Shown here piece after piece: positions 12,809-55,212 of a stretch of 64,000 bases of DNA (position 1 is its first letter; each line of letters begins with the position of its first letter). The position numbers and the translations under genes were made by a program. Below the pieces are notes generated by a model. It was given only the letters and a program-made list of their open reading frames with translations, did not search any database and had not been told where the DNA came from. The stretch is from an uncultured Actinomycetes bacterium (GTDB lineage Bacteria; Actinomycetota; Thermoleophilia; Gaiellales; JAICJC01): positions 96,226 through 160,225 of the forward strand of contig CAVPTL010000006.1 of assembly GCA_963708725.1 (NCBI GenBank). The letters are read 5' to 3'.

Positions 12809-13234
12809 ATGTCCAACAACGTCAAACCCCTCTACGGCGCCGAGCACGTGCGCCGATACCGCGAGACCGATGGTGAAGTCGGTCACGACTGGAACGGTAC
12901 CCAGGCGCTGATTCTCACCACCGTCGGGCGCAAGTCTGGCAAGCGCCACGACACACCGCTGATCTACGCACCCTACGGCGATGCGTTTGTGATCGTGGCC
13001 TCCAAGGGTGGGACGCCGAAACACCCAGCCTGGTATCTCAACCTCACGTCTAACCCTGAAGTAGAGGTTCAGGTTGGGCCCGATCGGTTCTCCGCGAAAG
13101 CGCGCACAGCGACCGGGAACGAGCGGCAAGAGCTGTGGGGTCGCATGACCCACGAATGGCCCGCCTACGACTCGTACCAGGCAAAGACCGATCGCGAGAT
13201 TCCGATCGTCGTGCTCGACCGCCTCGACACCTAG
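12809..13234 (+). CDS. Deazaflavin (F420)-dependent nitroreductase family protein (Ddn/DUF385-like)
   Basis: Starts at MSNNVKPLYGAEHVRRYRETDG. ..TTVGRKSGKRHDTPLIY.., ..VIVASKGGTPKHPAWYLNL.. and ..ERQELWGRM.. are hallmark motifs of this family. Confidence 0.8.
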   Translation: MSNNVKPLYGAEHVRRYRETDGEVGHDWNGTQALILTTVGRKSGKRHDTPLIYAPYGDAFVIVASKGGTPKHPAWYLNLTSNPEVEVQVGPDRFSAKARTATGNERQELWGRMTHEWPAYDSYQAKTDREIPIVVLDRLDT

Positions 13235-15117
13235 GCGGCCAACGCCGCCCGTGCTCGGGCGAGCTTGACCGCGGCCGTCAACGTGGGCAGGTCGTAGGCG
13301 CCGTTGTGGCGCAGCCCGTTGATGAAGAACGTCGGCGTTCCAGAAACCCCGCTCATGTCGGCCGTGTCGACGTCCTCGGAGATACGGCCGACACGGGCGT
13401 GGGTGCGCAGATCTTCGGCAAACCGTTCGCGGTCGAGATCGAGCACATCGGCGTAGCGCAACAGGTCTCGCACCTTGAGGGCATGCTGGTGGTCGAGCAG
13501 GACGTCGTGCATCTCCCAGAACTTGCCCTGCGCCGCAGCCGCCTCGGAGGCTTCCGCCGCCAGCTGTGCGTTGGGATGCACGTCGTTGAGCGGAAGGTGG
13601 CGCCACACATACCGCGCGTCCCCGAAATCGGCCAGCAGGTCGCGTACGACCGACTCGGCCTGGCCACAGAACGGGCACTCGAAATCGCCGTACTCGACCA
13701 CGGTCACCGGGGCGTCGTGAGGCCCGCGGATGTGATCACGATCGGGATCCACATCGGCCGCGAGGTCGATGATGACATCGGCCGAGCCCAGAAGCGCGCG
13801 GATCTGGAGCCGCTTGGGAAGCCTGGCCGTTGCCCGGAAAACGACCCATGTGATCACCGACGAGAGCAACGCTGCGGTCAGGACTCCGAGCTTTGCCTGC
13901 TCGAGCTGCGTCCCGCTGAAGACGAGGGTGGCGATCAGGATCGAGACCGTGAACCCGATCCCGGCAATGGTGCCACCACCGGCGACGGCGGCCCAGCCAA
14001 CCGGCGGCCGTAGCCGACCCCGAGACACCATGGTCACGAGCCACGCCGTGCCGGCGATCCCGACGGGTTTGCCGACCACGTAGCCGACCATGATCCCGAG
14101 TGTGATCGGCGAGGTGAAGGCGCCCGAAAGGAAGCTCCAGTTGAGGACGATTCCTGCGTTGGCCAGGGCGAACAGCGGGACGATCACGTAGCTCGTCCAC
14201 GGGTGAAACTGCTGCTGAAGGCGGACGTTTGGTGAGATCGCCGACCTGACACCCGCGGTCGCGGTGGCCGCGAGCTCCGCGGTTGGCTGCTCTCGGAACT
14301 CCCGGAACAGATCGGAGGCCCGCTCCAGATCCACGCGGGCGGCGGGATAGGCCGAGACGACCAACCCCATCACCAGTCCCACCACCACCGGGTCGACCCC
14401 GGACTGCTCCATGAAAAGCCAGGCGCCGCCCCCGAGGAGGACGTACACCGCGCCGTAGTGGATGCCAAACGATCGGGCGGCCAGGGCAACGGCGAGCACG
14501 ATCACGGCCATCGCCAACTGGGCGGTCTGGATGTGCTCTGCGTAGACGATGGCAATCACGGCCAACGCGACCATGTCGTCGACGATCACCACGGTCAGCA
14601 TGAAGGCCTGGAGCCGGTCCGGGAATGACGGGCCGACCAGCGCGAGCATCCCGAGCGCAAACGCGGTGTCGGTCGACATCGCGGTGCCCCAGCCGTGTGC
14701 AGAGGAGTGCCCGGCGTTGAACAGCAGATAGATCGCGATCGGCACCAGGATCCCGCCGAGCCCTGCCAGCGCCGGAAGCGCCACCCGCCGCCGCTCACGC
14801 AGCTCGCCCATGTCGAACTCGCGACGTGCCTCCAGGCCGACGACGAAGAAGAAGAACGTCATCAGTCCGGCGTTGATCCATTCCTGGAGCTCGAGCGCGA
14901 TGCCGTGATCGCCCACGTGGATCGAGAGCACCGTGTCCCAAAGTGAGTTGTAGGAGGAGCTGTCGATGTTGACCCACGCAAGCGCCGCCAGGGTCGCTGC
15001 GAGCAGCACCGCAGCTCCTCCGGTCTCGGTGCCGAGGAACTCGCGCAGCGGCGTCGGCACGTTACGGGCCCACGCGGTGGTGCCGGCGAGTGTCCGCCCA
15101 TTCGTCGACTCGGCCAT
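13231..15117 (-). CDS. nhaA: Na+/H+ antiporter NhaA fused to a C-terminal DsbA-like thioredoxin domain
   Basis: N-terminus PLREFLGTETGGAAVLLAATLAALAWVN and the following polytopic region are NhaA-like. The C-terminus VTVVEYGDFECPFCGQAE.. is DsbA/thioredoxin-like with CPFC. Start chosen at ATG 15117 (MAESTNGR). Confidence 0.85.
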   Translation of the reverse strand: MAESTNGRTLAGTTAWARNVPTPLREFLGTETGGAAVLLAATLAALAWVNIDSSSYNSLWDTVLSIHVGDHGIALELQEWINAGLMTFFFFVVGLEARREFDMGELRERRRVALPALAGLGGILVPIAIYLLFNAGHSSAHGWGTAMSTDTAFALGMLALVGPSFPDRLQAFMLTVVIVDDMVALAVIAIVYAEHIQTAQLAMAVIVLAVALAARSFGIHYGAVYVLLGGGAWLFMEQSGVDPVVVGLVMGLVVSAYPAARVDLERASDLFREFREQPTAELAATATAGVRSAISPNVRLQQQFHPWTSYVIVPLFALANAGIVLNWSFLSGAFTSPITLGIMVGYVVGKPVGIAGTAWLVTMVSRGRLRPPVGWAAVAGGGTIAGIGFTVSILIATLVFSGTQLEQAKLGVLTAALLSSVITWVVFRATARLPKRLQIRALLGSADVIIDLAADVDPDRDHIRGPHDAPVTVVEYGDFECPFCGQAESVVRDLLADFGDARYVWRHLPLNDVHPNAQLAAEASEAAAAQGKFWEMHDVLLDHQHALKVRDLLRYADVLDLDRERFAEDLRTHARVGRISEDVDTADMSGVSGTPTFFINGLRHNGAYDLPTLTAAVKLARARAALAA

Positions 15118-18895: not shown

Positions 18896-18928
18896 GTGAA
18901 TAAATGGTGCCAGGCACCATTTATTCAC
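18896..18928. repeat. REP-like palindromic element, 33-nt subfamily (centre A), 3' flank of RAYT pseudogene
   Basis: GTGAATAAATGGTGCCAGGCACCATTTATTCAC is a perfect 16+1+16 palindrome. It overlaps the last 8 nt of the RAYT ORF. Confidence 0.9.
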
Positions 18929-19596
18929 GGAGGCGGCGGACGACTGTTGATTGACTGACTCCGAGCTCTGCCGCGATCTCGTGCTGGGTGTAACCGTGTG
19001 CGATAGCGAGCCGAAGTTTGTTGCTGCGCACGAGATCGGCCAGCGGCGGGCGCTCGGGAAGGTCTCTGCCCTCGGCCACGAATTCGCGGTAGCGGTCGCT
19101 GGATCCGTCGAAATACTCAAGCGCCGAGTCGCGGTCAAGCGCCGGGTGTGCCGGGCCAAGCCCCGCGAGCGCCGCGTGGGCAGACCACGGCCAGCGATCG
19201 TGGTCTGCCACGAGTCCCGCCCGCCACGGGTTGAGGGCGATGTAGCGAAACGTCTGGGTGAGATGCTCGTCGTACTCGATCACCTTGGCGTAATAGCGGT
19301 CGCCGAAGAGGTGGCCGGCGCGGTCGTGCAACGCGTTGAACCGATGCGAGTGCGTCGTCCCGATCGCATGCATCCCGAGTGCCAGATTCCTGGCCCGCGA
19401 CGCACGCAGCATGTGGATGTGGTTGCGTGAGCAGGCAGTACGAGAGCAGCCGCCAATTAGCAGCTGCCCGGCGTGACCCATGAGGCGAGAAACGACCGCC
19501 GGTCATGGTCATCGACGAACGACGGGGATGCCGTCGTTCCCGCGCAGGGTGACGTGGTGCAGGGACCGGGTTCCTGACGTCGCGCGGCCGAGGCAT
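18921..19596 (-). pseudogene. REP-associated tyrosine transposase (RAYT; IS200-like Y1/HUH transposase), disrupted by frameshifts and in-frame stops
   Basis: ORF 18921..19481 carries NHIHML (HUH) and GHLFGDRYYAKVIEYDEHLTQTFRYIALNPWRAGLV. The upstream motifs MPRPRDVRNP, SLHHVTLRGN, FVDDHDRRSFL and LLSYCLL are present but split over all three frames. Two in-frame TGA codons lie at 19503-05 and 19509-11. Confidence 0.75.
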
Positions 19597-20639: not shown

Positions 20640-20945
20640 TCAGCCGCCGCGCTGGTAGCGCTGTTCTTCCTCGACCGTGCGCTCGGCCGTCGGCATCGCC
20701 TCGAGCCGCCCGTCGGGGATCGGCTCGCCGCTTTCGATCGAGCGGCCGTAACTGCCGGCTGCGAGCCGTTCCTCCGCGCGTGCCACCGCTTCGAGCTCTC
20801 GTCGCAGATCGCCGATGCGCCCGTGATCGATCTCGGTCTGATGGAGATCGGGCTCGTCCTCGTCAGGTGCCGCCAGATCTTGCAGCTCACCCTCGATCCG
20901 CTGCCTCACCTGGGCGAGGAGTTCGGTCGCGCGCGCATTGTCCAT
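20640..20945 (-). CDS. TraR/DksA-like protein lacking the C4 zinc-finger cysteines
   Basis: 101 aa with a coiled-coil N-terminus. ..LAAGSYGRSIESGEPIPDGRLEAMPTAERTVEE.. aligns by eye to the DksA zinc-finger segment (G.YG.C..CG..I...RL.A.P.A..C..C), but all four Cys positions are non-Cys. Confidence 0.6.
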   Translation of the reverse strand: MDNARATELLAQVRQRIEGELQDLAAPDEDEPDLHQTEIDHGRIGDLRRELEAVARAEERLAAGSYGRSIESGEPIPDGRLEAMPTAERTVEEEQRYQRGG

Positions 20946-21028: not shown

Positions 21029-21521
21029 CTATCGATCGAGTGCGGAGCCGGTCTCGAGCAGCGTCTTGAGGTCGCTCAGAATCCAGGCCCAGCCGCCGCC
21101 GGCGTCGGCATCCTCACCCGAGGTCACGCGCGCCGTGGCCGGTGCGTCGGTCAGTTCGTGGACGACGGTCAGCTTGGAGATGCCGTCCCCGGCCTCGGTG
21201 ATCTCCCACGTGAGCCGGGTCGCGGGCTCGGCCGACATCACGTCGTCGAACAACGCATGCCAGGTCTGCACCAGCCGGTGCGGAGGGTCGGATTCGAGCA
21301 CTTCGCCCTCCACGATGACGTTGGGCGAGCCGTACTCGGTCATCGCCTGCCGATGCAAACACCCGGTAGGCGCCGCCGGGTCGCAGGTCATATTCGGTCG
21401 GCGCCCGATAGCCATACCTCTCCGACCAGTCGCGGGCGGTGATCGCCTCCCAGATCCGCTCCGGGGTGGCCTTGATCCACACCTGATAGACGCGGGTGGT
21501 GGTGTCGGTGGTGGTGCTCAT
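21029..21521 (-). pseudogene. SRPBCC/AHSA1-domain protein with a single frameshift
   Basis: The N-terminal half MSTTTDTTTRVYQVWIKATPERIWEAIT..DLRPGGAYRVFASA is in the frame of ORF 21114..21593. The C-terminal half ..AMTEYGSPNVIVEGEVLESDPPHRLVQTW.. is in the frame of ORF 21029..21415. The switch lies near 21330-21365. The start ATG at 21521 has GGAGGA upstream and overlaps the ArsR stop. Confidence 0.7.
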
Positions 21522-21868
21522 GCCTTGTCCTCCAAATCGTGTTTGAGATCGAGCAGCGCTGAGACACGCCGCTCGGTGTACTTGTCGATCCACCGATCGT
21601 GGATCTGCCGAATCGGGACCGGGTTGAGGTAGTGCAGCTTCTCCCGGCCCGACCGGCGGGCGACGACCAAGCCCGCGGCTTCGAGCACCTTCAGATGCTT
21701 CATCACGCCAAACCGTGTCATGTCCAGCTCGGATTCCAGCTCGCTGAGCGTTCGGCCGTCACGCTCGAAGAGCAGGTCGAGAAGGAACCGACGGTTGGGG
21801 TCAGCGAGGGCTTTGAATGCCAGGTCGTCGTCGGTCATGGCCTCCACTATAGGTGACCTTATGGTCAC
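21518..21868 (-). CDS. ArsR-family transcriptional regulator
   Basis: ..FKALADPNRRFLLDLL..RTLSELESELDMTRFGVMKHLKVLEAAGLV..RSGREKLHYLNP.. is an ArsR signature. The GTG start at 21868 overlaps the upstream gene's stop (GTGA). An alternative ATG lies at 21838. Confidence 0.8.
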   Translation of the reverse strand: MTIRSPIVEAMTDDDLAFKALADPNRRFLLDLLFERDGRTLSELESELDMTRFGVMKHLKVLEAAGLVVARRSGREKLHYLNPVPIRQIHDRWIDKYTERRVSALLDLKHDLEDKA

Positions 21869-22581
21869 ATGTCAATCCGATCGTTCCAGAGTGCAGCCCA
21901 CTGGTGAGAGTCGAGTTCGCGTGCCGTCGCGCGCACCGGCGCCACGGCGCGCACGCCGTGGCGAAAGCCGCGCGCGACGAAGGAGCGGTACCGGCCGTGA
22001 TCGGACGGGTCGATCAACGGCGTGATCCGTCGCCGGAACACCAACATGCCGGCGTCGACGCTGGGGGGCGGCTGGAACGCCGATGGAGGGAGGCGGCGGG
22101 TGATGCTGACCTCGTACAGGGCGCCCCAGATCACGCTGTTCGCGCTGCTCGGCCAGGGCACGCCGCGTTTTCGGGCAACGCCCCACTGCACGATCAGGTC
22201 GGCGCGCTGGAGCGGTGTCTCGGCGTTGTCCAGCAGATGATGGAGCAGGTCGTTGGTGCGACTGAACGGCAGGTTTGCCACCACCCGGAACGGTTCTCCC
22301 GGCAGCGCCACCGTGGCGGCGTCGGCCTCGATCACCTCGACGTTCGGCCAGCGTCCGCGCAGCCGGGCCGAGAGCCGCGGATCGAGCTCGATCGCGACGA
22401 CCCGCCGCGCCACCCGCGCGAGCGGAGCGGTCAGGCGGCCGCTGCCGGCGCCGAGATCGACGACGACATCGGCCGCGGATATCGCGGCATCATGCACGAC
22501 CTCGGCGGCCCACTCGGGGCGCAGGAAGTGTTGGCTACGGGCGCGCGGAGGCGACGCGCGGTGCGCACGCCGGCCGGCCAC
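21865..22581 (-). CDS. rRNA adenine N6-methyltransferase family protein (Erm/KsgA-like)
   Basis: 238 aa. SQHFLRP.., VVDLGAGSGRLTAPLA (SAM motif), VVAIELDPRL and VVANLPFSRTNDLLHHLL (NLPF in place of N[IL]PY). The size is closer to Erm-type than to KsgA. Confidence 0.75.
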   Translation of the reverse strand: MAGRRAHRASPPRARSQHFLRPEWAAEVVHDAAISAADVVVDLGAGSGRLTAPLARVARRVVAIELDPRLSARLRGRWPNVEVIEADAATVALPGEPFRVVANLPFSRTNDLLHHLLDNAETPLQRADLIVQWGVARKRGVPWPSSANSVIWGALYEVSITRRLPPSAFQPPPSVDAGMLVFRRRITPLIDPSDHGRYRSFVARGFRHGVRAVAPVRATARELDSHQWAALWNDRIDM

Positions 22582-22621
22582 GGAAGACGAAGGTCGTGGT
22601 CATGTGGCGTAGCCTAACCCG

Positions 22622-23764
22622 ATGTCGAATGTTTTGGAAACCGGGGAGTGGGACGAGCACCTGGCGCGCGACACCGTCCGCGCGATCGTGGGTGACGCCC
22701 GGGCCCACCGGTCGTCCGCCGGACTGTGGCCGCTACATCCCAGTGATCGCGAGAGCAACGACGATCCCGACGCGTTCACCGGGCTCTACATGGGAGCCGC
22801 CGGGATGGAGTGGGCGTTGCGTGAGCTTGGTGATCCCACCCCCGATCGACCCAGTTCGCAGGCGCTCTACGTCCGATCGCCCGACACCGGCGAGGTCGTC
22901 CCGGGCCTGTGGCTCGGGGAATCGGGCCCGCTTCTGGTCGACTGGTTGGAGGCGCGCGATGCCGAAAGTGCCGACCGGCTGCTGGCCCGTATCCGCACCA
23001 ACGCCGGCCACGTATCGAACGAGATCATGTGGGGCGCACCCGGCACCATGCTTGCCGCCGAGGTCGTCCACGCCGAGTCCGGGGATGAGCGGTTCGCCGA
23101 GGCGTGGCGGCAGAGCGCCGACCGGCTATGGGGCGAGTGGCGGTACGACCCAGAGGCCGGGTACCTGTGGACCCAGGATCTGCACGGCTCCATCCAGCGG
23201 ATCCTCGGCCCCGCACACGGATTCGCGGGAAATGTGCGCGTGTTGTGGCGGGGGCGGCGGCTGCTCGACCCCGACCGTGCGGCGCAGCTCGAGCAACGCG
23301 CTGTGGCGACGGCCACAGGCTGTGCGATCCACTCCGGTGGGCTCGTCAACTGGCCTCCCGCTCCAGGCAGCGAGGCCAGCCGGCTGCAGTGGTGTCACGG
23401 CGCGCCGGGGATGATCTGCTCGCTTGCCGATGTCGCCACCGGCGACGCCGCCTTCACCGCGTTGCTGTGCGGCGGCGGCGAGCTGGTGTGGCAGGCAGGC
23501 CCGCTCGAGAAGGGCCACGGGTTGTGTCACGGTACCGCCGGGAACGGTTACGCACTGCTCGCCCTTCACCGCCGTACCGGCGATGTCCGCTGGCTCGAGC
23601 GAGCGCGGGCGTTTGCGATGCAGGCGATCGCTCAGTACCGAGGCGCCCTCGACCGATACGGGATCGGCCGCTACTCGCTGTTCACCGGCGACATCGGGCT
23701 TGCCCTGTACCTCGAGAGCTGCGTTTCGGCCGACCCCGGATTTCCGATGATCGATCGCTTCTGA
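22622..23764 (+). CDS. LanC-like (lanthionine synthetase C family) protein, stand-alone
   Basis: 380 aa. IMWGAPGTML, LQWCHGAPGMI and GHGLCHGTAGNGYALL contain the GxxG repeats and the Cys/Cys-His zinc ligands of LanC. Confidence 0.85.
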   Translation: MSNVLETGEWDEHLARDTVRAIVGDARAHRSSAGLWPLHPSDRESNDDPDAFTGLYMGAAGMEWALRELGDPTPDRPSSQALYVRSPDTGEVVPGLWLGESGPLLVDWLEARDAESADRLLARIRTNAGHVSNEIMWGAPGTMLAAEVVHAESGDERFAEAWRQSADRLWGEWRYDPEAGYLWTQDLHGSIQRILGPAHGFAGNVRVLWRGRRLLDPDRAAQLEQRAVATATGCAIHSGGLVNWPPAPGSEASRLQWCHGAPGMICSLADVATGDAAFTALLCGGGELVWQAGPLEKGHGLCHGTAGNGYALLALHRRTGDVRWLERARAFAMQAIAQYRGALDRYGIGRYSLFTGDIGLALYLESCVSADPGFPMIDRF

Positions 23765-53411: not shown

Positions 53412-54392
53412 CTAGCCCCCGCCGTAGGTGATCGTGTGACACACGGCCGGGAGGCTCCCCGAAGCCAGCTGGGCCATCACCTCGGGAAGCTCGTCGAACT
53501 GCGACTCGCCGGTGAGGAGCGCATCGAAGGCGGGGTCGCGCAGCAGCTCGAGGGCGATCGCCATGCGGTCGGCGGCCGTGCGGCGCAGGGCCCGTGCGGG
53601 GGAGACGACGCCGACCTGGCTCGAGCGGATGCCGAGGCGGCCGGAGTGGAACGCTCCTCCCAGCGACAGCCGCACCTCGGTGTCGCCGTACCAGCTGAGG
53701 TCGAGCACGGTGCCCTCGGCAGCGAGCAGGTCGAGCGCGCGCTGAAGGCCCGCTGATGTTGCACTCGTGTGTACGGCGAGATCGCAGCCGCCGTCGGCCT
53801 CCTCCGGGAGGGCGAAATCGACCCCGAGCGCAGCCGCGATCTCTGCCCGCTGCGGATCGACATCCACGAGGGTGACGCGCATCGCCGGAAACCGTTGGAG
53901 CAGCCGCGCCACGCAGCAGCCGAGCATCCCCGCGCCGACGACGACAACCCGGTCGCCGACCAGCGGGGCAGCGTCCCACAGGGCGTTGACCGCCGTTTCG
54001 ACGGTGCCGGCGAGGACAGCGCGAGCGGGTGGGATGTCCTCCGGCACGATCGATACGGCACCGTCCGGAACGACATACACGGTCTGGTGCGGGTAGAGGC
54101 AGAACACGGTACGGCCGCGCAGGTCGGGCGGCCCTTCCTCGACAACGCCGACGTTCAGATAGCCGTACTTGACCGGGCCCGGGAAAGCCCCATCCTGGAA
54201 CGGCGCCCGCATCCTCACACGCTGGTCCGGCGGCACGCCGCCGCGGAACACGAGCGTCTCGGTGCCGCGGCTGATCCCCGATCGTACGGTGCGAACCAGA
54301 ACGTCGGCCGGCCCGGGTTCGGGCAGTTCGACCGGACGGATCTCGCCACAACCGGGCGCTCGCAACCAGAACGCGTGTGCCTCCCTACTCAT
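53412..54392 (-). CDS. Zinc-type/MDR-family alcohol dehydrogenase-like oxidoreductase
   Basis: 326 aa from [10 protein letters not shown]. ..[15 protein letters not shown].. and ..[17 protein letters not shown].. (Rossmann) are MDR motifs. The ATG at 54392 overlaps the upstream methyltransferase stop by 8 nt. Confidence 0.8.
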
Positions 54393-55095
54393 GGCCGCTC
54401 GCCTGCTGTGGTTCGTCGCCGGTGCAAGCGGCGCGGGACCCGGCCGCCAGGAACGTCGTCCCAAAGACCAGCTCCGTCCAGGAGCAATCCGCCAGCGTCT
54501 CCTGCATGGCTGTACGAATCACCTCCCACGGACGGCGCATGATCCACTCGTCGATGGAACCGAATGGCCGCACAACCGCGGTTCCGAGCTGCGCCAGCCA
54601 CCAGGGAGCGTTGTCGGGAGCCTTCAGATCCAGCACGACCCAGCGCCCACCGGCGGAGAGCGCGGCGGCGCCGCGGGTGATGACGTCTCCGCATTCAGGC
54701 ACCTGTGTGAGGGCGTAGGTGGAGAGGATCGCGTCGACCTCGGGTGGGAAGTCGAACTCGGCCGCGTCGGCGTGTACGAGGGTGATGTTGCGCCAGCCAT
54801 GGGCATCCATCCGCTGCCGGGCTTGAGCGAGCATCGCGTCGGTCAGATCGACGCCGACGATTCGGCCCCCGGGACCGATCAATCGCTCGATCAGCGAGAA
54901 GTTCAGCCCGGTGCCGCAGGCGATGTCGACCACGTTGTCACCCGGGCGAAGCCCGAGTGCTTGGAGGGCCCGGAGGCGGTGTGACCGCTGCGGGTATCCG
55001 GGAGCGGGGTAGAACCGGGAGGTGAGGTCGTAGTGCTTTGCCTTCTTGCGGTATGTCCCGATCAGGCGCTCTCGCCTATGGTCGGTCGTGCTCAC
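54385..55095 (-). CDS. Class I SAM-dependent methyltransferase (first gene of six-gene operon)
   Basis: 236 aa. ..VVDIACGTGLNFSLIERLIGPGGRIVGVDLTDAMLAQAR.. is SAM motif I plus the post-I acidic residue. Confidence 0.8.
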   Translation of the reverse strand: MSTTDHRRERLIGTYRKKAKHYDLTSRFYPAPGYPQRSHRLRALQALGLRPGDNVVDIACGTGLNFSLIERLIGPGGRIVGVDLTDAMLAQARQRMDAHGWRNITLVHADAAEFDFPPEVDAILSTYALTQVPECGDVITRGAAALSAGGRWVVLDLKAPDNAPWWLAQLGTAVVRPFGSIDEWIMRRPWEVIRTAMQETLADCSWTELVFGTTFLAAGSRAACTGDEPQQASGHE

Positions 55096-55212
55096 GGTGT
55101 CTCCTCGAAATTGGGCGAGCCGCTCACCCGGTCTGTACCCGATACCTGCGGGCTCACTGTCTCGTACGGCCGGTGGGCCTGAACGGATCGGCCAGAGGCC
55201 CCTACCCGTCGC

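Follow-up and report, generated by a model that had tools for sequence, protein, structure and literature searches.

The 64,000-nucleotide stretch of DNA analysed here (hereafter the window) belongs to contig CAVPTL010000006.1 of an uncultured actinomycete assigned to the Gaiellales and is high in GC (65–73%). Its minus strand carries a gene for an Erm-like rRNA methyltransferase, followed by genes for an ArsR-type regulator and an SRPBCC protein; 40 nt from the methyltransferase start, and divergent from it, lies a gene for a stand-alone LanC-like protein (Table 1). In a preliminary description of the sequence, these genes had been taken for a functional grouping that might answer a thiol-reactive or ribosome-targeting compound. 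We incline to the view that the region comprises three independent units and not one system, namely the LanC-like gene, an Erm-type methyltransferase gene under the control of a short leader, and the ArsR–SRPBCC pair. The central feature of the locus is the leader, an open reading frame (ORF) that runs across the start codon of the methyltransferase gene and recurs throughout the family.

Table 1. Features of the locus, in window coordinates; the leader and the methyltransferase gene are listed first
Feature	Position	Strand	Basis or remark
Erm-like rRNA adenine N6-methyltransferase, 238 aa, GTG start	21865–22581	−	Pfam RrnaAD, NCBIfam Erm and PDB matches
Leader ORF (upstream ORF, uORF), 22 codons, MTTTFVFRGRPACAPRVASARP*	22535–22603	−	ATG 22603–22601, TAG 22537–22535; −1 frame relative to Erm
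Leader codons CGT-GGC-CGG (R-G-R, +X+ type) superimposed on the Erm GTG (22581–22579)	22574–22582	−	Conserved position
GC-rich hairpin, +3 to about +38 after the Erm GTG, between arrest motif and leader stop	22543–22578	−	Folding energy, covariation
−10-like hexamer TAGGCT, 7 nt before the leader ATG, of the putative leader-ORF/Erm promoter	22611–22616	−	Sequence reading
Stand-alone LanC-like protein, LanCL type, 380 aa	22622–23764	+	PF05147 (89.5 bits), PDB matches, motifs
−10-like hexamer TAGCCT, 6 nt before the LanC-like ATG	22610–22615	+	Sequence reading; promoter role inferred
ArsR promoter, TTGACA (21875–21870), 18 nt, TATAGT (21851–21846)	21846–21875	−	Promoter scan
Palindrome GTGACCATAAGGTCAC, 16 bp, in the ArsR promoter spacer	21868–21853	−	Putative operator
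ArsR-family regulator, 106 aa from ATG 21838, cysteine-free	21518–21838	−	NF033788, PF12840, PF01022
SRPBCC/AHSA1 gene, disrupted by a 1-nt insertion	21029–21521	−	PF08327 halves in different frames

Relatives of the locus were drawn from metagenome-assembled genomes (MAGs) of uncultured Actinomycetota, mostly labelled Gaiellales, Gaiellaceae or Thermoleophilia. The Erm-like family set comprised 80 species-level loci at 40–72% identity, to which four near-identical contigs (L001–L004) and one sister lineage (L085) were added. The four contigs, which are 99% identical and were retrieved via a 99%-identical cluster member, represent the window's own species, while the sister lineage shares 82% Erm identity and 75% LanC identity with the window. 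All counts given below for the leader ORF rest on 78 dereplicated Erm-like loci with identities of 40–100%.

The assignment of the methyltransferase to the Erm/KsgA family in the preliminary description is borne out by a score of 110 bits (cutoff 24) against the Pfam family RrnaAD (PF00398), as is its suspicion that the enzyme is of the resistance type and not a KsgA. The window protein reaches 174.4 bits with the broad NCBIfam Erm model NF000499, whose cutoff is 212, and 101 bits with the ksgA equivalog TIGR00755, which is below the cutoff of 171. The Erm model ranked first for all 16 family members tested, the best E-values being 1.2e-54 for Erm and 1.5e-31 for ksgA. Among solved structures the closest relatives are Erm(38) (95 bits) and ErmE (84 bits), with KsgA and Dim1 proteins at 60 bits or less, and every one of the plasmid-borne relatives (33–40% identity) is named Erm. 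Since model scores, structural matches and plasmid matches agree, the Erm type is favoured over KsgA. The SAM-binding and catalytic motifs GAGSGRLT, ELD, DA, NLPF and FxPPPxVD are invariant across the 16 family members, and the N-terminus MAGRRA is kept in homologues. The actinobacterial proteins Erm(38), ErmE, Erm(46) and Erm(37) display the same RrnaAD motifs (GAGSGRLT, ELD, DA, NLPF, the latter as in Erm(38), and FxPxPxVD) and provide the best profile and structural matches, yet they are just 33–40% identical to the window protein, which falls in a separate clade so far known from uncultured MAGs of the Gaiellales/Thermoleophilia type. Judged by its sequence, the enzyme is accordingly an Erm-side member of the Erm/KsgA superfamily that forms a clade of its own and scores under the curated cutoff; its methylation target would be A2058.

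Alternatively, the protein may not be a macrolide-resistance Erm at all, and may instead modify another rRNA adenine or another RNA, or serve as the KsgA-like enzyme of its lineage. Its score under the curated Erm cutoff, its limited identity to named Erm proteins and its short C-terminal region would all fit such a role. We nevertheless regard this as unlikely, given that all tested members score best on the Erm model while the window protein also misses the ksgA cutoff, that the closest solved structures are those of Erm(38) and ErmE, that the gene contexts across loci are variable and not of a housekeeping kind, and that the gene is preceded by a leader of the +X+ type, a hallmark of macrolide-inducible genes. 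No further gene of the RrnaAD/KsgA–Erm family is present within the 64-kb window; a methyltransferase match at 54388–55212 was considered as a possible KsgA and rejected as a generic UbiE/ArsM-like enzyme. Clustering of the neighbours over the family loci revealed no recurrent neighbour of the Erm-like genes.

The leader ORF is found in 78 of 78 loci, with a length of 21–33 codons. The Erm GTG lies inside this ORF, whose frame is shifted to one nucleotide earlier, so that the leader codon CGT is made of a C and the GT of the start codon. The distance from the leader start to the Erm start is 16 to 34 nt, and the leader stop always falls between +41 and +68, whereas the next stop in the same frame within the erm body lies at a median distance of 267 nt and within 70 nt in only 13% of cases. 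The encoded peptide follows a common pattern: M-T/S-T, three mainly hydrophobic residues, then R-(G/V/A)-R. The second bases of the leader codons, at −3, −6 and −9, are T, as is characteristic of codons for hydrophobic residues. The R-x-R motif is placed exactly over the Erm start in 75 of the loci, its first arginine being residue 6–12 of the peptide. The overlapping residues 2 and 3 of Erm vary among 15 different dipeptides, yet the form GTG-NN[C/A]-GNN maintains the arginine of the leader frame (CGN or AGR). This anatomy and its conservation can be read directly from the aligned loci.

The signals for initiation differ between the two frames. A TANNNT hexamer stands 3–13 nt upstream of the leader start in 55/78 loci, as compared with 1.6% at random ATG or GTG positions; such close proximity implies leaderless or near-leaderless mRNAs. 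A core Shine–Dalgarno (SD) sequence of the GGAG type is present before the leader start of 20 loci, whereas the Erm start lacks one in all 78. In one of the next-closest species (L007), the leader promoter is located inside the 3′ end of a DUF2461 gene.

Downstream of the Erm start, the mRNA would fold into a GC-rich hairpin, which across the family spans about +3 to +37. Because RNAalifold did not recover it, the hairpin was assessed by folding each sequence separately against background windows and by means of a hand-set structure. The 42-nt window containing the hairpin has a mean minimum free energy (MFE) of −21.5 kcal/mol, as compared with −14.4 for same-size windows within the erm body and −13.3 for those of the whole locus, and is within the top 5% of its own background windows in 60–65% of loci. 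In a subfamily of 49 sequences, the proposed register pairs 80.6% of cells, and slid registers pair 20–61%. The covariation score in this subfamily is 0.126 versus 0.093 in shuffles, a value that none of 500 shuffles reached, and some compensatory changes are seen. In the closer subfamily, the leader stop follows the hairpin by 7–10 nt. A long-range pairing between the 5′ end of the leader and Erm codons 27–29, suggested by the MFE fold of the window, was rejected, as it is not conserved in relatives.

The overlap of two frames raises the question of where Erm synthesis begins. The start codon is GTG in 77 of the loci and TTG in the remaining one. Two loci that have lost the first leader arginine retain their start codon (TTG or GTG), and Erm residue 2 is nearly always Ala, Ser or Pro, as expected beside an initiator Met; for these reasons the GTG is, on sequence grounds, a real start codon. 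The same observations bear on the possibility that Erm is produced by a drug-stimulated +1 frameshift from the leader ATG, of the Ty3 type (NUC-C-GUG with the rare codon CGU), which would yield an Erm with an MTT-hydrophobic extension. Relative to the leader, Erm is indeed in the +1 frame, CGT belongs to the T-ending codons that are rare here (8% T at third positions), the hairpin lies just downstream, and ketolide-induced frameshifting is known in the ermC leader (PMC5009743). A start codon that survives the loss of the first arginine, and a second residue typical of the neighbour of an initiator Met, are difficult to reconcile with this route. Moreover, the second arginine and the leader stop are conserved beyond the putative shift site, which disfavours frameshifting, and there is no slippery site for re-pairing; frameshifting of the slippery kind was rejected as the main route, re-pairing being impossible at NUC-CGU-G. 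We therefore consider the frameshift improbable.

The leader resembles known attenuators in several respects. The +X+ motif (Arg/Lys-X-Arg/Lys) is the commonest macrolide arrest motif, and during translation of the ErmDL leader, MTHSMRLR, the ribosome comes to a halt when Leu occupies the P site and Arg-tRNA the A site, whereupon the downstream mRNA refolds and exposes the erm ribosome-binding site (PMC12583479). As in ErmDL-type attenuators of erm, mef and msr genes, a short ORF would be translated ahead of the resistance gene, and a hairpin adjoins the presumed stall site. The peptides are also alike, with hydrophobic residues followed by Arg-x-Arg at positions of about 6–10 (compare MTTVMVRVR and MTTTFVFRGR with the ErmDL peptide; PMC12583479). 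Like the classical ermC and ermD attenuators, the leader appears to possess an initiation signal of its own and a putative drug-arrest motif; unlike these, it does not end upstream of erm, with alternative hairpins that sequester the SD sequence or the start. Instead, leader and resistance gene overlap, the erm start falls within the R-x-R codons, and translation of the leader would stop 41–68 nt inside erm. In further contrast to the ErmDL type, erm lacks a core SD, initiation of the leader ORF is usually of the leaderless kind, and one hairpin downstream of the start stands in place of alternative SD-hiding ones.

This layout was absent from the seven known actinobacterial erm genes examined for comparison, namely erm(46), erm(36), erm(55), erm(50), erm(51) and the plasmid erm genes of Nocardioides and Dietzia (locus labels L087–L093). 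All seven have GGAG before the start, which is ATG in six and GTG in the Nocardioides gene, and at least five show a short ORF with an arrest-type motif that lies upstream of the gene and apart from it. Separate leader peptides can be read upstream of erm(46) (MGNTNIAVTEFRRF), of erm(36) (MGSPSIAVTRFRRF), and of erm(50) and erm(51) (MNAIFTTFGRLR...); that of the Nocardioides plasmid gene contains ...TASLRLRSR... (...SLRLR...). A search of the literature brought up no erm leader of this overlapping kind. With its conserved, compact build and a motif of the macrolide-arrest type over the start codon, the leader may represent a novel form of erm attenuation.

Two other systems provide partial parallels. 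In mycobacteria, a leaderless short ORF (sORF) can form the first cistron of an mRNA, and its translation status controls the downstream gene (bioRxiv 10.1101/834739). The Cys-responsive sORFs of this kind share with the present leader a leaderless short first cistron in Actinomycetota, but their poly-Cys codons sense charged tRNA-Cys and act on a downstream SD sequence, whereas the leader in the window has a motif of the antibiotic-arrest type and overlaps the regulated start codon itself. The ermC leader, for which ketolide-induced frameshifting is a documented regulatory mechanism, offers a precedent for drug-bound ribosomes doing more in an erm leader than simply stalling (PMC5009743). There, however, the shifted ribosome only unfolds the spacer, ermC initiates at its own SD-led start, and the two ORFs do not overlap.

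Taken together with the arrest-type motif, the arrangement suggests that the leader may sense a drug. The mostly leaderless ORF of 21–33 codons would be translated before Erm, and, in the absence of drug, its translation and the hairpin would leave the SD-less GTG unused. In the presence of a tunnel-binding macrolide or ketolide, the ribosome would arrest at R-x-R. Its P site would then hold the codon that lies 2 nt beyond the GTG, and the hairpin would have its 5′ arm melted within the ribosome. As the arrested ribosome would physically cover the GTG, the classical logic of unmasking is not applicable. It is tempting to speculate that the arrested complex is resolved by peptidyl-tRNA drop-off or by ribosome splitting of the HflX or ABC-F type, and that this leaves a ribosome or a 30S subunit on the GTG, from which Erm would then be started. 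The hairpin, located between the GTG and the leader stop, would meanwhile keep normally terminating ribosomes off the GTG. Such re-initiation in place, whereby a ribosome arrested on Erm's own start is converted to an initiation complex, would be a previously undescribed mechanism, and we put it forward tentatively, as a proposal that may well prove wrong. Compared with drug sensing by the leader and with A2058 as the target of the enzyme, re-initiation is the least certain step. Alternatively, it may be a terminating ribosome that transiently unmasks the GTG.

A number of observations weigh against the scheme or parts of it. An R-x-R-arrested ribosome sitting on the GTG excludes the known unmasking logic, and no direct precedent for re-initiation in place was found in the literature. 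In 33 of the 78 loci, the leader codons create the sequence GGTGA 6 nt upstream of the GTG, which might act as a weak SD. The N-terminus of Erm itself contains R-A-R, a possible arrest site for drug-bound ribosomes. The hairpin region has a GC content of about 83% and includes partly self-complementary GCGCGC runs, for which reason the covariation support is only moderate. RNAalifold gave no consensus structure for all 76 leader regions, since the hairpins are out of register between subfamilies, and it recovered only a 4-bp core in the 49-sequence subfamily. The methyltransferase scores under the curated Erm cutoff (174 vs. 212). Finally, the 78 loci share ancestry, and the counts consequently do not represent independent events.

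Alternatively, the leader and hairpin may form a purely constitutive translational damper on a costly methyltransferase, in which case the peptide senses no drug and any induction is transcriptional, for instance through a WhiB7-like activator. The leader and Erm starts are 16–34 nt apart, so that ribosomes on the two sites would be mutually exclusive, a hairpin beginning at +3 would hinder initiation, and an arrested ribosome covering the GTG fits repression more simply than induction. A damper, however, needs no particular peptide, yet three hydrophobic residues and R-x-R are kept in 75/78 loci while the overlapping Erm residues vary, and the motif agrees with that of the best-known class of macrolide arrest (PMC12583479). 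This makes a damper without drug sensing rather doubtful in our eyes.

The LanC-like ORF on the opposite strand conforms to the preliminary description in its position and in its intact zinc ligands. Its best relatives of known structure are human LanCL2 (84 bits) and LanCL1 (80 bits), with which the segments WCHGAPG and GLCHGTAGN align at the zinc-ligand motifs; WCHG and CHG are invariant in 18 homologues. So are L5, W10 and E12, which supports the assigned ATG start. The protein shares the Cys, Cys-His and catalytic His motifs of the eukaryotic LanCL1 and LanCL2, and the residue after its first zinc Cys is His, as in LanCL proteins, whereas bacterial cyclases have Tyr (PMC9934072). LanCL1 and LanCL2 add glutathione to dehydroamino acids; the window protein is bacterial and has no conserved partner genes. 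It most likely adds a thiol to dehydroamino acids or similar electrophiles, and nothing in the analysis ties this predicted activity to the ribosome.

The protein has the LANC_like domain and the Cys/Cys/His zinc ligands of lanthipeptide cyclases, but neither a precursor nor a dehydratase (LanB, LanM or kinase-lyase) is found alongside it. In agreement with the preliminary description, Pfam searches of the near-identical contigs detected no LanB, LanM, LanKC or transporter within ±10 kb. The protein belongs to a large stand-alone family in similar bacteria (6914 matches), and inspection of 80 metagenomic LanC-like loci revealed no recurrent neighbour or conserved partner. Two candidate partners were rejected. 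An APH-type kinase nearby, which could have suggested a class IV/V-like system, is also present in species devoid of the LanC-like gene. The intergenic short ORF containing Thr and Cys, a candidate lanthipeptide precursor, is the Erm leader and is conserved in lineages without LanC-like.

The adjacency of the LanC-like and Erm-like genes was examined in both directions. By tblastn and a LanC family HMM (E ≤ 1e-3), a LanC-like ORF lies beside the Erm-like gene only in the window's species (L001–L004) and in the sister lineage L085, and in none of the other 76 Erm-like loci. Conversely, an Erm-like neighbour is missing from all 80 of the metagenomic LanC-like loci, and the same is true of the LanC-like locus L086. 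The four next-closest species keep the backbone of the region, with glyoxalase, agmatinase and DUF2461 genes upstream and then the Erm-like, ArsR, SRPBCC and DksA-like genes, followed in two of the four by the APH kinase; none of these neighbours recurs at more distant Erm-like loci. Immediately ahead of the Erm promoter, the slot is occupied by a 1027-aa regulator in L005 (638–3721) and by a 449-aa enzyme in L006 (6609–7958), and is empty in L007 (7341–7982). On this comparison, the LanC-like gene is an insertion into a variable slot upstream of the Erm promoter, specific to two lineages, and its position beside Erm appears to be a chance neighbourhood and not a conserved system. In the window, the APH-type kinase adjoins an IS200/RAYT-like ORF related to Y1 transposases (18921–19481). 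The L001–L004 contigs are strain-variable around 12980–13660: a 224-aa gene, which has a Y1_Tnp match in L004 and no Pfam match in L002, alternates with a 150-aa HTH-only gene in L001 and L003.

The predicted −10 hexamers of the two divergent genes, TAGCCT (22610–22615, plus strand) and TAGGCT (22616–22611, minus strand), overlap by 5 bp at 6–7 nt from the start codons, and the same arrangement occurs in L085. The two leaderless promoters would exclude each other. Occurring in the two paired lineages, the arrangement is a local curiosity and not a conserved system.

Downstream of the methyltransferase gene, the preliminary description had seen ArsR and SRPBCC genes chained to it by overlaps of 4 nt. 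The ArsR-type winged helix-turn-helix (wHTH) protein is confirmed by NF033788 (59.8 bits, cutoff 55) and is matched by PF12840 and PF01022 as well. As regards the chain of 4-nt overlaps, the ATGA at 21518–21521 is real, but the GTGA at 21865–21868 depends on GTG 21868 being the ArsR start, and gene calls in relatives place the start at the equivalent of ATG 21838 (106–109 aa). A near-consensus promoter of the sigma-70 type lies directly before this ATG: it scores 11/12 in the promoter scan, where shuffled sequences are expected to give 0.3 sites, its −35 element overlaps the last Erm codons and its −10 element ends 7 nt before the ATG. Promoter, palindrome and spacing are conserved in L085, L005, L006 and L007. 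In view of this conserved promoter and palindrome just before the ATG, the ArsR–SRPBCC pair most likely forms a unit in its own right, probably leaderless and subject to autoregulation, that has a promoter and an operator of its own and is not translationally chained to the methyltransferase gene.

The pair as such is a common combination of a small regulator and a ligand-binding protein. As in other pairs of ArsR/SmtB regulators with SRPBCC (AHSA1) proteins, the stop of the wHTH gene overlaps the start of the AHSA1 gene and a palindrome is placed in the promoter spacer; here, by contrast, the regulator is cysteine-free and the SRPBCC gene is frameshifted. The absence of any cysteine from the 106-aa ArsR sequence, and of a recognisable Cys/His metal site, sets the protein apart from classical metal sensors. 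The SRPBCC gene announced by the preliminary description is present, with its AHSA1 domain, but is not intact: alignment with four relatives locates an extra A at about 21348 (GGC-A-GGCG in place of GGCGGCG) in a span of 493 nt, whereas the gene is intact in five relatives (163 aa, 492 nt). The frameshift may reflect a real pseudogene or an error of long-read assembly, the latter being possible because split genes occur in related long-read contigs as well (those for an arginase, a sigma factor and a GST in L003 and L004). Beyond this pair, at 20640–20945 of the window, lies a gene for a 101-aa DksA/TraR-family protein without any cysteine, which has therefore lost the C4 zinc finger of DksA/TraR; the DksA-like gene travels with Erm, ArsR and SRPBCC in the closest species (L005, L006, L007 and L085).

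These findings bear directly on the original suggestion that the LanC-like and Erm-like genes constitute a co-regulated divergent pair which, together with ArsR and SRPBCC, answers a thiol-reactive or ribosome-targeting compound. The 40-nt spacing and the overlapping opposite-strand hexamers, which are kept in a second lineage (82% Erm and 75% LanC identity), speak in its favour. Synteny, the lack of which the preliminary description had itself named as a refutation, fails beyond the window's species and L085: the pair is missing from the next-closest species and from the 76 Erm-like and 80 LanC-like loci. The cysteine-free ArsR has its own promoter, and the intergenic short ORF, which is conserved where LanC-like is missing, represents the Erm leader and no lanthipeptide precursor. 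Likewise, a shared thiol-stress response finds no support, since the ArsR lacks cysteine and the link of ArsR/SRPBCC with Erm-like is confined to one small clade. A co-regulated pair thus seems highly improbable. Elsewhere in the window, the segment 48001–54000 stands out from the rest by its raised GC content (71–73.5%) and strongly positive AT skew (+0.11 to +0.18); as read from the sequence, its minus-strand genes encode an apparent glycosyltransferase, methyltransferase and dehydrogenase.

The adjacency of the LanC-like and Erm-like genes sheds no light on what stand-alone LanC-like proteins do in bacteria. The methyltransferase itself belongs to a large Erm-like clade in uncultured soil Actinomycetota that sits under current annotation cutoffs, which is relevant to resistome surveys. 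Its leader is an element of only about 90 nt that has been kept across roughly 80 species-level lineages. If this leader is a drug sensor, it would add to the designs known for antibiotic-inducible resistance one in which the very same nucleotides serve as sensor and as regulated start codon, and in which the textbook route of hairpin exchange would be impossible.

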